A stretch of DNA of 64,000 bases. Source: Candidatus Amunia macphersoniae (GTDB taxonomy: Bacteria; Chloroflexota; Dormibacteria; Aeolococcales; Aeolococcaceae). Within the stretch, counting starts at the first letter, position 1; the number at the start of each line of letters is the position of its first letter. The position numbers were made by a program, and so were the translations under genes. Positions 40,413 through 52,361 of this stretch are shown here, one piece after another. Below the pieces are notes generated by a model. That model was given only the letters and a program-made list of their open reading frames with translations, had not been told where the DNA came from and made no database searches. Where the stretch lies: contig JAEKNN010000026.1 of the NCBI GenBank assembly GCA_016464795.1, positions 5,059 to 69,058 on the forward strand, given 5' to 3'.

Positions 40413-43400
40413 ATGCGGACACGGACGACTCTGGTTGCGGTGATCGCCGCCCTGCTCGGGGTCGCCTCGTCAAACGTCCTCGTCTCCGGCAGTCAGACCG
40501 CCCTGACGGGGGCTCCGGTTCCGACGGGAGCGACCGTGCTCCCCAGCGGTCGCCTGGTCACCCCGGCCGGCAGGTCGTTCAACCTCGGGGACTTCCCGGT
40601 CGGGCTCGCCATCTCCCCGGACGGGAGCCTGGCGGTGGCGCCTGGCAATGGGCAGGGCAAAGGCTACAACGACGGTTTCGGTTCCCTCTGCCAGGACGCC
40701 GGCAGGCCGAACCAATGCGGCTATGTCCCCGCGACCAAGCAGGGCAATCCCAACACCCCCTCTCCCGACGAGGCACTCTTCGTCACGGATCTCCTCAACG
40801 GTGGGCAGACGCGCGTGGTGGCCACGCCGACGTCTCACGACCCGGCCCACCCCAACTTCAACTTCTTCGCCATGGGTGTGGCGTTCTCACCCGGTGGCGG
40901 CCACCTGTATGCGACGGGCGGTGGCAACGACGCGCTCTACGACTTCACGGTTGCCCACCAGACGCTGGTCTCGCCGCCCCGCACGACCTACCTGCAGGAG
41001 ACCAATAACCTGCCCACGTCCTCCCCTACTCACCAGCCTCCAAGCAACGGCGTCGCAGGCGAGACAAAGGGCCTGGCGATCACTCCCGACGGGGGCACGC
41101 TGCTGGTTCTCAAGGAGCAGGCTGACGCGCTCGACCTGGTCCGCACCAGCGATCTCTCCCTGATCCAGGAGCTGCCACTGGGCCCGAAGAGCGCCGACAC
41201 CGGCGTTGGCATCGGGCTGGGCTTCGGATACCCGTATGCGGTGACCGTCGCGCCGGACGGAGCCAGGGCGTACATCACCATGCAGGGGATCGGCGCGGTC
41301 CAGGTCGTGACCCTGCCGGTTGCCGGAGCGCCCGCATTCCTCGCCGCGCCAGTGCCTGCCGGCGACCACCCCACCGGCATCGCCATCGCGTCCGACGGGT
41401 CGACGCTGATGGTTGCCAACGCCAACGATGACACCGTCTCGATCATCTCCCCCTCGCCGGCGCCCGCGCTCGCGCAGACGCTGGCGGTGCACGCGGTGAG
41501 CAGCCAACCGGTTGGCTCAGTCCCCAACGCCGTCGCCTTCGCCGGGCCCACCCGAGCGTATGTGGCCCTGGCCGGTGACGATGCCGTCGCGATCCTCGAC
41601 CGCGCCGGCGGCGTATGGTCGGTGACCGGCTACATGCCGACGGGGTGGTACCCGGTGGCGGTCGGGGTGCGCGCTCAAACAGGCGAGGTGCTCGCCGTGT
41701 CGGCCAAGGGGCTGGGCAGTCGCTACATCAGCAATGGCGAGTACCCCGCGCCGGCCTTTGGTGGCCCCGCTGCCTTGCCCGCTCCGTACTACTACGACGG
41801 CAGCAACATGCCAGGCGTGCTCAGCGTGATCGCGCCGCCGAGCAACACATCTGACGTCGCCTCGATGTCGCAGCAGGTGCGCGACGACATTGCCTTCGCA
41901 AGTCCGCCGAGGGCGGGGCAGGCTCAAACCGCCGTTCCACCACCTCCCGGCGGTCAATCGCCAATCACTCACGTGCTCTACGTGGTCCGCGAGAACCGCA
42001 CCTTCGATCAGGTGTTCGGTGACCTGGGCACGACCCGATCTGATGTCGACGCAAATCCGAACCTCGAGACGCTGGCCGCGGCCACCCCCAACGCTCATGC
42101 GATGGCGCGACAGTTCGGGATCGGCGACGCCTTCTTCTCAGACGGCGAGGCGAGCATCCAGGGCCACTACTGGACCAGCTCCGCCAACGTCGACGATTAC
42201 GTGGAGAAGTCATGGCGTCAGTACTACTCCCCGCGCAACCACCCCGGTGACTCGGTGAGCACCGTGTCGGAACCGCGCGGGTGCAGCATCTTCCAGGCGG
42301 CCCAGCTCAAGGCCGCCTCCAGCAACGGGAGCTTCACCTACAAGGATTACGGTGAGCCAACCGGGGTCGACAACCCAACCATCGATCCAACCTCAGCGAT
42401 CGGCTCGATCCTGCCGCCCGGCACGCCGGTGACCCCGCGCGCGGGGCAACCGGCCAGCCAGTGCGCACCCGTCCCACCCACCAGCCTCGACCCAACCTTC
42501 AAGAACTTCCTCACCGGCTTCTCCAGTGACAACCGTCCGCTGGCAACCGACTTCCTCACCGACGTCGGTCTCAATCCCGATGGCACCCAGACCACCCAGG
42601 GTCAGTCTGGCGCAAGCTTCCTGCGCAACTTCTCCTACCTGGTGCTGCCCGGCGACCACACCACCGGGTACGGCGGCGCCAACACCCCGCGCGCCGAGGT
42701 GGCGCGCAACGACGCGGCCCTGGGAACCGTTCTCTCCAGCCTCTCCAAGTCGAAGTACTGGGCGACGACAGCTGTGTTCGTGGTCGAGGATGACAGCCAG
42801 GACGGGCCCGACCACATCGACGGCCACCGCAACGTCCTGCTGGCGGCGAGCCCCTACATCAAGCACCTCGCTGCCGATGGCTGCACCGCTGGGTACGTTG
42901 GCCACGACCACTACGATCAGGCCGGAGTGTTGCGCACCATGGAGCTGATCCTCGGTCTTCCGGCGCTCTCCGCCACCGACAGCAGCGCCGCCCCTCTCTA
43001 CGACATGTTCCAGCCCAAGAACCAGGCCTCTCAGTTGACCGCGGACGATCTCCGACCGTATGAGGTGACTCCGGCCCCGCCATTCATCGACGAGACCGTC
43101 GCATCGCTTCCCCACACTGCAACGAACACGGCTCTGTCGTCGGAGTCGGCGTCGCTCGATCTGCGCGGGATCGACCTGGGCGGCCCGAAGCTCGAGGAGG
43201 TGCTCTGGCGCAGCGTGAGGACGGATCCCATTCCCGAGCAGCTTGCCGCCGAGCTCGTCGTGGTCAGGGCAGTCGGAGCCGAGCAGTACCGCAGCATCAG
43301 CCAGTCAACCCGCACGAGCTCGGCGCTCGGGGTCGGGACGCTGCGCGGCCGGTTCCTGGCAGCAAGCTCGCCCAAGTGTCCAGGGCACGCAATCCCGGAG

Positions 43401-43517
43401 TCACCATGGGTCGCCCTGATCGGAGTGGCGGGCTCCATCGTCGTGGCCACCGCCGTGGCGCTACGTACCCAGGTCGGCCGCCGCCGGCGCCGGTCCATCG
43501 AGCCCGGAAGAATCTGA
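40413..43517 (+). CDS. Large secreted protein: N-terminal YVTN/lactonase-type beta-propeller fused to C-terminal PF04185-type phosphoesterase (phospholipase C/acid phosphatase family) with C-terminal anchor
   Basis: Signal peptide; repeats LAISPDGS / LAITPDGGTLLV / VTVAPDGARAYI / IAIASDGSTLMVANANDDTVSII; phosphoesterase signature HVLYVVRENRTFDQVFG; C-terminus IPESPWVALIGVAGSIVVATAVALRTQVGRRRRR; 1034 aa. Confidence 0.8.
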   Translation: MRTRTTLVAVIAALLGVASSNVLVSGSQTALTGAPVPTGATVLPSGRLVTPAGRSFNLGDFPVGLAISPDGSLAVAPGNGQGKGYNDGFGSLCQDAGRPNQCGYVPATKQGNPNTPSPDEALFVTDLLNGGQTRVVATPTSHDPAHPNFNFFAMGVAFSPGGGHLYATGGGNDALYDFTVAHQTLVSPPRTTYLQETNNLPTSSPTHQPPSNGVAGETKGLAITPDGGTLLVLKEQADALDLVRTSDLSLIQELPLGPKSADTGVGIGLGFGYPYAVTVAPDGARAYITMQGIGAVQVVTLPVAGAPAFLAAPVPAGDHPTGIAIASDGSTLMVANANDDTVSIISPSPAPALAQTLAVHAVSSQPVGSVPNAVAFAGPTRAYVALAGDDAVAILDRAGGVWSVTGYMPTGWYPVAVGVRAQTGEVLAVSAKGLGSRYISNGEYPAPAFGGPAALPAPYYYDGSNMPGVLSVIAPPSNTSDVASMSQQVRDDIAFASPPRAGQAQTAVPPPPGGQSPITHVLYVVRENRTFDQVFGDLGTTRSDVDANPNLETLAAATPNAHAMARQFGIGDAFFSDGEASIQGHYWTSSANVDDYVEKSWRQYYSPRNHPGDSVSTVSEPRGCSIFQAAQLKAASSNGSFTYKDYGEPTGVDNPTIDPTSAIGSILPPGTPVTPRAGQPASQCAPVPPTSLDPTFKNFLTGFSSDNRPLATDFLTDVGLNPDGTQTTQGQSGASFLRNFSYLVLPGDHTTGYGGANTPRAEVARNDAALGTVLSSLSKSKYWATTAVFVVEDDSQDGPDHIDGHRNVLLAASPYIKHLAADGCTAGYVGHDHYDQAGVLRTMELILGLPALSATDSSAAPLYDMFQPKNQASQLTADDLRPYEVTPAPPFIDETVASLPHTATNTALSSESASLDLRGIDLGGPKLEEVLWRSVRTDPIPEQLAAELVVVRAVGAEQYRSISQSTRTSSALGVGTLRGRFLAASSPKCPGHAIPESPWVALIGVAGSIVVATAVALRTQVGRRRRRSIEPGRI

Positions 43518-43531
43518 CCCCGCGCTGCCCC

Positions 43532-51129: not shown

Positions 51130-51133
51130 GTCG

Positions 51134-52288
51134 TCAGTGCGCCTGGACAACCCGGGCGGGATGCGAGCGCCAACGCCGGATGACCAGCGCCAGCCCGATC
51201 AGCGGCAGCAGGACCACGGTCGGGGCCTCCGGGACCTGACCGGCGCTGGGCGCGAACAGGTCGTTCATCGGCACCGACGGGGCTGCGTTGTTGAGATGCT
51301 CGGTGATGCCGAAGACATCCTCGACCGTCCGCAGCAGCGATGCGTGGTCGTACGGCGTGTGGATCACCTGCCCGGGCGAAACCCCGGGGCCGATGGCCAG
51401 CAGGCCAACCCGTCCCCCGAATCCCGGCGTGCCGCCCAGGCCGCCGTGGCAGCACCCCGACGTGTCGCTCGTCGAGGCCTCATCGAAGGTGACCAGCAAG
51501 AGGCCGTTGTGGGAGCTGAGGTAGTCGAGAAGAGGTGGTACGTTCCCGCTGAGCCACGCGTCGGCGCTGGTGAGGCCGCCCGCCTGCCCGCCCGCGCACG
51601 GCGAGTCGTGGCCGTCGTGGCAGGTGTCCGGCGTGATGAAGGCGAACGCGGGCACGGTGCCTCCCGCGATGTCGATGCTGAGCTGCGTGTATGGAACGTC
51701 GTGCGCCCGGCACCGGGTGTCGTTGCCGACGATGTCAGGGTAATAGACGAACGGGTTGTGCCTGTCGGCGTAGTTGCCGGCGGGCGCGGCCGTACTGTTC
51801 CCCTGGTACTGGTCGGCACCGGCAGTGGGGGAGTACTGGGCGTGGAAGCATGGGGAGGGCATGCTGTCCATGTAGCCCGCCCAGCTGCGGTGCGCGTCGT
51901 CCAACTGGTCACCAAGGTTGCGTCCGCCGGCGGAGACGGCGGTCGTCTGCGCGCAGGTGTACAGGTTCTGCCCCAGACAGTCGCTCGATGTCGACGGATT
52001 CGCCGGTTGTGCGCTGGTCATGGCGATGTAGTTGTCGAGGCTGACGTGGCCGGTGCCGTAGTACTGGTCGTCAATGGCTCCCTTCGGCACCAGCGTGCCG
52101 TTGAGGTAGTGCGCGGGACTGCCGGGACCGAACGTCGACGCGAAGCTCTCGTTCTCGAGGACGAGGACCACGACGTGGTCGTACGCGGGAATCCCCTCCG
52201 TCGCGCTGGCGGCGACAGCGCGGACCGGCACCCACGACAGGCTGAGTGCGGCGGCGACAGCGGCCACGCCGGCCCTTTTAAACAGCAT
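51134..52288 (-). CDS. Secreted acid-phosphatase-like phosphoesterase (PF04185-related) with C-terminal anchor; start at ATG 52288 (signal peptide MLFKRAGVAAVAAALSLS)
   Basis: AYDHVVVLVLENESFASTFG, HVSLDNY; C-terminus VPEAPTVVLLPLIGLALVIRRWRS. Confidence 0.8.
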   Translation of the reverse strand: MLFKRAGVAAVAAALSLSWVPVRAVAASATEGIPAYDHVVVLVLENESFASTFGPGSPAHYLNGTLVPKGAIDDQYYGTGHVSLDNYIAMTSAQPANPSTSSDCLGQNLYTCAQTTAVSAGGRNLGDQLDDAHRSWAGYMDSMPSPCFHAQYSPTAGADQYQGNSTAAPAGNYADRHNPFVYYPDIVGNDTRCRAHDVPYTQLSIDIAGGTVPAFAFITPDTCHDGHDSPCAGGQAGGLTSADAWLSGNVPPLLDYLSSHNGLLLVTFDEASTSDTSGCCHGGLGGTPGFGGRVGLLAIGPGVSPGQVIHTPYDHASLLRTVEDVFGITEHLNNAAPSVPMNDLFAPSAGQVPEAPTVVLLPLIGLALVIRRWRSHPARVVQAH

Positions 52289-52361
52289 TCGCCACCACTC
52301 GATCCCCTCCCGCAACGCTGGATACCAGGCTATGAGGCTACCTGGCGGGTGATTGTGCTCG

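Follow-up and report, generated by a model that had tools for sequence, protein, structure and literature searches.

The window analysed here, a 64,000-nucleotide stretch of Candidatus Amunia macphersoniae contig JAEKNN010000026.1, encodes five exported phosphoesterases of the PF04185 family, which we name P1 to P5. P1 (40413..43517) is encoded on the plus strand and carries an additional N-terminal propeller. The other four are encoded on the minus strand: P2 (44561..46527, as two overlapping open reading frames (ORFs), 45421-46527 and 44561-45766), P3 (46759..48948), which carries an additional C-terminal propeller, P4 (ORF 49537-51150, ATG at 51129) and P5 (ORF 51134-52315, ATG at 52288). 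The cluster lies close to a pstSCAB-phoU-phoP operon, a gene for glycerophosphodiester phosphodiesterase (GDPD) and a block of polyphosphate genes, and a repeat resembling a Pho box precedes several of these units.

Enzyme types and domain architectures

An earlier note on this DNA had described five paralogous PF04185 genes. A Pfam hidden Markov model (HMM) search placed all five proteins in the family, with scores above the gathering cut-off of 23 bits for P1 (35.8), P3 (89), P4 (353.5) and P5 (104.3), as well as for both ORFs of P2 (131.8 bits for 45421-46527 over profile positions 1-190; 121.8 bits for 44561-45766 over positions 197-355). Every peptide motif quoted in the note is present in the translations. 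The term paralogous did not stand beyond the superfamily level. In pairwise BLASTP comparisons, P3 and P5 alone were clearly alike (28% over 338 residues, E 1e-23), and the matches of every other pair were short, reaching at best E 5e-12. The five genes are not recent duplicates. They are old divergent subfamilies of four types: one PlcN-like (P4), one AcpA-like (P2), two SapM-like (P3 and P5) and one YncE fusion (P1).

All five enzymes have N-terminal export signals, a Tat signal in P4 and Sec signals in P1, P2, P3 and P5. The catalytic set of E-N metal ligands, a Ser/Thr nucleophile, His residues and a D-D/E pair aligns with AcpA, PlcN and SapM, although the K/H-H pair of P1 could not be placed by alignment. 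The roles of the catalytic residues in AcpA and SapM come from mutagenesis (PMC6635428). None of the five passes the phosphocholine-specific phospholipase C equivalog model TIGR03396 (cut-off 580.25 bits), for which P4 scored 486 bits and the other four 13.6-85.3.

P4 (537 residues) resembles PlcN and PlcH of Pseudomonas aeruginosa (TIGR03396; PDB: 9gy2, 9gye), with which it shares a Tat signal (SRRQVL, in agreement with the earlier note), ENRxFDHYFG, GPTxPN (GPTDPN in P4, with the Thr) and DENGGFFDH. Residues 6-491 align with PlcN (9gy2) at 364 bits, and the alignment stops at residue 503 of the 706-residue PlcN. The last roughly 200 residues of PlcN are missing from P4, which has a proline-rich linker and a hydrophobic, Arg-rich tail instead, with no further Pfam domain. 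Control of PlcH and PlcN by phosphate starvation is established.

P2 shares FGPSxPGALNL (the nucleophile Ser region; FGPSSPGALNL in P2), IPHHEPFNY and YDDSDGxYDH (YDDSDGWYDH in P2) with AcpA from Francisella tularensis (PDB: 2d1g). The likeness lies in these motifs only, as the two halves of P2 scored 85.7 and 54.6 bits, far below the 362.75-bit cut-off of the AcpA-type model TIGR03397. P2 furthermore differs from AcpA in being about 160 residues longer, in its C-terminal anchor tail and in being frameshifted in the assembly. The frameshift, already proposed in the note, is corroborated by a frame switch in third-position GC (GC3) at about 45640-45600 and by comparison with intact homologues, which places a net -1 shift around 45613-45617. 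P0241, the closest intact homologue (76% identical, 641 residues), reads GGTNHPTSTFVPDEF where the window goes from ...GGTNHPT to HTFTPDEF..., and across the junction (45600-45640) intact homologues (76% identity) read NHPTSTFVPDEF. After repair, P2 comprises 656 residues and begins with its Sec signal. The frameshift could be that of a pseudogene or an assembly error. Thousands of P2 relatives, 65-70% identical and labelled phospholipase C, occur in Actinomycetota; the same identity to P0243-P0360 of Micromonosporaceae, Pseudonocardiales and Jatrophihabitans is high across phyla.

P3 and P5 resemble SapM, a secreted atypical alkaline phosphatase of Mycobacterium tuberculosis whose activity needs E59, N60, S95 (PSE motif), K159, H160, H204, D238 and E239, as determined by mutagenesis (PMC6635428). 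The SapM sequence used for comparison agrees with PMC6635428 in length and in the eight residue numbers, a weaker basis than a database record. Aligned to the whole of this sequence, the N-terminal domain of P3 is 30% identical (E 2e-31) and keeps all eight required residues: E47 and N48, S83 within HPSEPNY (identical in SapM), K159 and H160, H208, and D261 and E262. P5 is 25% identical (E 6e-23) and keeps seven of the eight, with K159 replaced by R. In P3, the Sec signal is followed by the SapM-like PF04185 domain (residues about 35-335) and a seven-bladed propeller (about 360-729), an addition of 370 residues relative to SapM, and there is no C-terminal anchor. P5 has a Sec signal and the motifs LENESF, HVSLDNY, DRH, CHDGH and FDEAS, and adds a membrane tail to the SapM layout. 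SapM, a virulence factor, acts on phosphoinositides; P3 and P5, by contrast, are enzymes of a soil bacterium.

The predicted structure of P3 (AlphaFold2 (AF2); predicted local distance difference test (pLDDT) 86, predicted template modelling score (pTM) 0.83) comprises an alkaline-phosphatase-like core and a seven-bladed propeller. The core matches the fungal phospholipase C (PLC) 8k3g, PlcH, AcpA and the Streptomyces GPE phosphodiesterase 8yk5. The propeller matches CylK, Ycf48 (TM-score 0.65-0.70) and Kelch domains, and together with the seven WAVG repeats of P3 this bears out the C-terminal seven-bladed propeller recognized in the note. The propeller region (46762-47886) has no Pfam match; blades of its relatives hit DUF2510 and DUF6087.

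P1 begins with a Sec signal followed by a seven-bladed YVTN/lactonase-like propeller (residues about 40-435), the PF04185 domain (about 505-900), a helical region and the C-terminal tail. Its catalytic domain, with the motifs RENRTFD, EAS581IQGH, PGDH749 and EDD794, is the most divergent of the five at 35.8 bits and aligns with AcpA at two ends only, RENRTFDQVFG and LPGDHTTG...VVEDDSQDGPDH. The AcpA-aligned residues and S581 are invariant in 49 homologues, and this invariance makes S581 the candidate nucleophile. The lactonase model PF10282 scored 18.5 bits in P1, under its cut-off, and 48.6-51.4 bits, above it, in homologues. In the AF2 model (pLDDT 80, pTM 0.81) the N-terminal propeller most resembles the YVTN propeller 1l0q and 6-phosphogluconolactonases. 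The propeller HMMs support the note's reading in the homologues of P1 and leave P1 itself below cut-off and P3 without a match, while structure prediction recovers both fusions in confident models. The high pTM values suggest that the domains of P1 and P3 are packed in a fixed arrangement.

Both fusions are frequent among soil members of the Actinomycetota, Chloroflexota, Acidobacteriota and Dormibacterota. Among the scored candidates, P3 has 915 relatives at E<1e-5, with full-length copies in Streptosporangiaceae, the isolate Trebonia kvetii, Acidimicrobiaceae, Solirubrobacterales, Acidobacteriota and one Thermoplasmata metagenome-assembled genome (MAG). P1 has 293 relatives with the same order of propeller and PF04185 domain. 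It is 100% identical to P0121, a member of the NCBI class ‘bifunctional YncE family protein/alkaline phosphatase family protein’, which is an annotation label only. The note was correct that these are not textbook PLC/AcpA architectures, but they are not rare, and the P1 type already has this product name. No characterised member of either type and no paper on them was found in the literature searched, and the architectures are uncharacterised rather than new. The P3-type propeller alone belongs to a very large modular family, with 27,704 clusters at E<=1e-3, of which 6,812 remain at E<=1e-30. It is found, frequently as more than one copy per protein, in proteins of 357-1919 residues, several of them also bearing S-layer homology domains.

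Four of the five enzymes end in a short motif followed by about 20 hydrophobic residues, which resemble a transmembrane (TM) segment, and an Arg cluster. The motifs and basic ends are IPESPW and RRRRR in P1 (43398-43517), LPEAPW and RRRRR in P2 (44561-44680), LPVSPG and RLRK in P4 (49537-49650), and VPEAPT and RRWR in P5 (51134-51240). An LPE[SA][PR][WL] tail is also present on homologues from the contigs L161 and L162 (LPEAPW, LPESPL, LPESRW) and on several further relatives of P1 and P2. Actinobacterial P1 homologues carry LP[ART]TG or LAATG at the tail position, and actinobacterial P2 homologues have no tail. NCBIfam sorting-domain scores on the tails are borderline and conflicting. The tails do not qualify as LPXTG signals, since the motif itself differs; the P2 tail scored 15.8 bits with TIGR01167 (cut-off 15.9), and this match covered the TM and basic parts only. 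The PEP-CTERM model TIGR02595 gave a borderline 16.4 bits (cut-off 16) on the P5 tail and no hit on the other three. There is no sortase or exosortase gene within the window. In its layout, the [LIV]P[EV][AS]P-TM-Arg-rich tail resembles a variant sorting signal. We speculate that it could be an undescribed signal of Dormibacterota and related soil lineages, destined for an altered sortase or exosortase-like enzyme, and that the propellers would capture substrate and aim SapM- or AcpA-type phosphatases at polymers such as extracellular DNA or teichoic-acid-like material; we regard this combined proposal as unlikely.

A predicted Pho-box promoter element

Several phosphate genes of the window are preceded by repeats with the unit CTT[AGT]AC in gene direction and a period of 11 bp; GDPD and P3 have three units each. 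The pattern [GC]T[TCA]AA[GCT]-N5-[GC]T[TCA]AA[GCT] (STHAAB-N5-STHAAB) has seven matches against 0.10 expected from shuffles, in which the maximum count was 1. All seven lie upstream of phosphate genes, at pstS, GDPD, NUDIX/P1, P2, P3 and P5. The tetranucleotide TTAA occurs at eight sites in the 64 kb. Seven are in five promoter regions (two each at pstS and NUDIX, one each at GDPD, P3 and P5) and the eighth is inside the P5 coding region, so TTAA is almost reserved for the predicted Pho-promoter element in this window.

Six promoters (GDPD, NUDIX, P1, P2, P3 and P5) share one register, in which 8-bp units are separated by 3-bp linkers and the array ends 9 nt before a TAGNNT hexamer. The GDPD site (31459..31503, plus strand) overlaps the phoP stop and consists of CTGAAC/CTCAAC/CTTAAC, 9 nt and TAGGCT (31498-31503). 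The NUDIX-ROK site (40056..40089, minus strand) has a palindromic CTTAAC-N5-GTTAAG (40073-40089), 9 nt and TAGGTT (40056-40061). An assignment of this palindrome to P1 was rejected, as the geometry places it with the divergent NUDIX-ROK unit; P1 is preceded by a weaker array of its own. That array (40292..40336, plus strand) reads AATAAC/CATAAC/GGCAAC (40292-40319), 9 nt and TAGCGT (40331-40336), 82 nt before the P1 ATG. The P2 site (46577..46610, minus strand) has CTTTAC-N5-CTTTAC (46594-46610), 9 nt and TAGGGT (46577-46582), 55 nt before the P2 start. The P3 site (49002..49057, minus strand) comprises CTTGAC/CTTAAC/CTTATC (49030-49057), one degenerate unit, 9 nt and TAGCCT (49002-49007), in an intergenic region common to the divergent gene for a stand-alone receiver. 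The P5-P4 site (52335..52379, minus strand) comprises CTTGAC/CTTAAC (52363-52379), a degenerate CACAAT, 9 nt and TAGCCT (52335-52340). In addition, GTTAAT-N5-CTTAAC lies upstream of pstS (26329..26345, plus strand).

A strict regular expression for two units plus TAGNNT found just three of the six promoters, owing to degenerate proximal units at P3 and P5 and to the AG ending of the NUDIX unit. The register was therefore determined with the hexamer as anchor. The -10-like hexamers of GDPD and NUDIX are very close to the start codons, beginning 12 and 19 nt ahead of them, respectively, and the predicted transcripts would be leaderless or near-leaderless. A sigma-70 consensus scan of 39.9-54 kb found no promoter, which fits activator-dependent promoters and is not evidence for them.

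The array is retained on the contig L001, which carries an ortholog 80% identical to P3. Here four units (CTTAAG, GTTGAC, CTTAAC and CTTACC, positions 728-766) lie 85 bp before the ortholog start, compared with 82 bp in the window, and TACCCT follows in register. The contigs with the closest homologues of P1 and P2 (L163 and L164) begin so close to these genes that they do not include the promoters. Upstream of a P2 homologue (L161, 9830-9885) we found GTTCACT/GATCGCC/GTTCGCC, 11 nt apart, and upstream of a P1 homologue (L162, 9895-9935) GTTCGCC/GTTCACC, likewise 11 nt apart. Both sets are of the GTTCRCC type and fit the Streptomyces consensus. From these repeats, predicted Pho control of the P1 and P2 types would recur with a different box.

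The experimentally defined Pho box of Synechocystis SphR is CTTAACCT repeated three times with a 3-bp linker (PMC1906773), and Streptomyces PhoP sites are 11-nt direct repeats (PMC2275107). The window sites share with the cyanobacterial box the 8-bp unit CTTAAC(C), the 3-bp linker and the 11-bp period, and with the Streptomyces sites the 11-nt periodicity. They are likewise in the -35 position. The two known boxes belong to phyla other than that of the window, and the assignment of the window sites to a regulator is predicted. The fixed 9-nt distance to TAGNNT is described only here.

Gene order, neighbours and conservation

Genes in the window were called from GC3 and subsequent Pfam scans. 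From 25 to 56 kb, the order begins with a histidine kinase (HisKA and HATPase_c; 25216..26277, minus strand) that is divergent from pstS and, from its position only, is a candidate PhoR partner of PhoP. The pstS-pstC-pstA-pstB-phoU-phoP operon (26337..31485, plus strand; Pfam and ORF reading) follows, although pstS itself probably begins downstream of 26337. The operon ends with the OmpR-type phoP (Response_reg and Trans_reg_C; 30724-31485, plus strand). Next is GDPD (PF03009; 31510..32508, plus strand). Between pst and the phosphoesterase cluster there is a polyphosphate block (32477-40042) that encodes a His-phosphatase, a CHAD protein and ppk, all on the minus strand, followed by ppx, a ROK kinase and a NUDIX protein. 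By Pfam, the NUDIX gene (39557-40042) and the ROK-family kinase gene (38545-39546), possibly encoding a polyphosphate glucokinase, make up one minus-strand unit (38545..40042).

Within the cluster, a CaCA Ca2+/Na+ exchanger (PF01699, TIGR00367; 43532..44515, minus strand) starts 45 bp downstream of the P2 stop and, given this spacing, is probably co-transcribed with P2. The P4 ATG is 4 nt past the P5 stop, so P5 and P4 form one unit with P5 first. The stand-alone CheY-like receiver (PF00072; 49126..49518, plus strand) has no output domain, and its best NCBIfam match is CpdR (63.8 bits, under the CpdR cut-off). Two lipoproteins, recognized by their lipoboxes, are encoded on the plus strand at 52775-53890 (LTAGC) and 53953-54588 (VATGC). 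The first has no significant Pfam or PDB sequence match, its sole family hint being a sub-threshold Mala_s_1-like match. The neighbors listed in the earlier note (pstSCAB-phoU-phoP, ppk/ppx, CaCA, receiver and lipoproteins) were all found again by Pfam or by lipobox.

A 454-residue polytopic membrane protein without Pfam or NCBIfam match is encoded at the right edge of the cluster (54744-56108), and fatty-acid genes start at 56.6 kb. Housekeeping genes lie upstream of the 25-56 kb region, together with an ordinary arginine biosynthesis cluster (4772-12479) of an argC-like semialdehyde dehydrogenase gene, argJ, a class-III aminotransferase gene, argR, argG and argH. The GC content is 66-71% throughout the window, and composition gave no signal of a foreign island, with 0.66-0.68 in the cluster and 0.66-0.71 elsewhere. 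Rfam had no match anywhere in the window, the 320 nt that precede P1 among them.

The five-gene island is not conserved across 160 loci with P3 homologues, as the other window genes are almost always absent and most P3 homologues are solitary. The assembly is lineage-specific and made of widely distributed parts. Some relatives nevertheless keep parts of it. Contig L163 (1-5993) carries the closest P1 homologue (82% identical, with a C-terminus that looks frameshifted) among three PF04185 genes in 6 kb, including a P5 homologue that is 57% identical. On L162, a P1 homologue is paired with a P5-like gene, two PF04185 genes in all, and P0006 is accompanied on its contig by PstS-like genes and another PF04185 gene. 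On L128, CHAD and ppk genes lie 6 kb from a P3 homologue. On L001, a 43%-identical homologue of the lipoprotein 52775-53890 (3-554) is divergent from the P3 ortholog and shares the intergenic region with the Pho box; this lipoprotein may belong to the regulon.

Predicted function and comparison with known Pho regulons

The proposal of Pho control builds on the neighbouring pst, phoU, phoP, GDPD, ppk, ppx and CHAD genes and on the shared CTTAAC repeat. We consider it probable that the cluster is the extracellular hydrolase arm of a Pho regulon, in line with the Pho-controlled scavenging module envisaged in the earlier note, for which the predicted 11-bp repeat at both pstS and the cluster units now argues. 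PhoP binding, induction at low phosphate, the substrates and surface retention are inferred from the genes and their upstream regions. Upon phosphate limitation, PhoP would be activated with a PhoR-like kinase and bind tandem CTTAAC-type 8-bp units, 11 bp apart, that replace the -35 element, thereby recruiting RNA polymerase to promoters without one. This would switch on pstSCAB-phoU-phoP, GDPD, NUDIX-ROK, P1, P2-CaCA, P3 and P5-P4.

The intact catalytic residues and the nearest characterised relatives suggest that the five exported enzymes attack different organophosphates outside the cell. The PlcN-like P4 may cleave phospholipid head groups, GDPD would act on glycerophosphodiesters, and the AcpA-like P2 and the SapM-like P3 and P5 could free phosphate from monoesters. 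The substrate of P1 is probably chosen by its propeller. The hydrophobic Arg-rich tails may keep P1, P2, P4 and P5 on the cell, where P3 has a propeller instead; if the tails hold these four enzymes there, phosphate would be freed beside the PstS transporter. PstSCAB would import it, and ppk, ppx and CHAD would manage polyphosphate. We speculate that the CaCA exchanger supplies metal for these enzymes.

Several observations weigh against this interpretation. P2 is frameshifted and may be a dead enzyme, the proposed substrates are guessed from relatives only 25-30% identical, and the source organism is an uncultured MAG. The repeat pattern was defined and counted on the same sequence, making the statistics post hoc, and outside confirmation of the array is one ortholog contig (L001) only. 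The pstS site has no TAGNNT hexamer, and the P1 array is degenerate and the weakest of all. There is no site at the ppk, ppx or CHAD genes, so that within the polyphosphate block NUDIX-ROK alone has one. A general link of the P3 family to the Pho box was rejected, since a CTTAAC-type pair was present at three loci among 111 upstream regions (L001, L081 and L063; L001 and L081 are the same contig), and one further locus had a pair of the actinobacterial type.

The repeat could instead be the operator of a regulator other than PhoP, such as another OmpR-type protein or a system built on the orphan receiver, responding to a different signal, for example calcium or envelope stress. PhoP binding is predicted only, the cluster does contain a stand-alone receiver and a Ca2+ exchanger, and the receiver gene and the P3 array are in one intergenic region. 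We give this little credence, as the receiver has no DNA-binding domain, the repeat fits the known Pho box in sequence and spacing, and it also precedes pstS and GDPD, which are core Pho genes. The common promoter element with its fixed geometry at every unit is hard to explain without co-regulation, and this speaks against the possibility that the five enzymes are merely located together, with unrelated roles in wall-polymer turnover, antagonism via phospholipase or signalling, and came to lie near pst by accident, perhaps after transfer from Actinomycetota. Consistent with such an origin, the genes are old divergent subfamilies, their arrangement is not conserved around P3 homologues, and the 65-70% identity of P2 to actinobacterial proteins suggests gene transfer between Actinomycetota and Dormibacterota. 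Yet relatives also cluster PF04185 genes (three in 6 kb on L163 and two on L162), and we find an accidental grouping very improbable.

Lipid remodelling is a further alternative to scavenging: a tethered P4, perhaps with others, would strip the head groups of the cell's own phospholipids, which phosphorus-free lipids would replace while the phosphate is recycled. Remodelling through phospholipase C during phosphate starvation is established in other bacteria, which counts in favor of this scenario. P4 comes nearer to true phospholipases C than the other four enzymes, appears to be membrane-tethered by its tail and shares a predicted Pho-box promoter with P5. The known remodelling enzyme PlcP, however, acts in the cytoplasm and comes from another family, four of the five phosphoesterases have the appearance of monoesterases and not of lipases, and genes for glycolipid or betaine-lipid synthesis were not found in the window. 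We therefore judge lipid remodelling improbable, and return to the extracellular hydrolase arm of a Pho regulon, which would make the cluster a phosphate-scavenging kit of a conventional sort, if an unusually rich one.

Dormibacterota, which abound in poor soils, have not been cultured, so their nutrient strategies are read from genomes alone. The locus provides a concrete predicted Pho regulon for this phylum, and its CTTAAC array is a first candidate Pho box with which Dormibacterota genomes can be scanned. The combined substrate range of four PF04185 enzyme types could explain growth on soil organic phosphorus, and activities established for the P1 and P3 fusions would annotate 293 and 915 relatives, respectively, in soil-wide families. 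Nothing in the locus overturns current understanding.

Pho regulons with PlcH/PlcN-type or AcpA-type enzymes are well known. The locus differs from them in that four subfamilies of one superfamily appear to be under one predicted control, in its two uncharacterised propeller fusions, and in a PlcN-type enzyme that seems to carry a membrane tail in place of the C-terminal domains.

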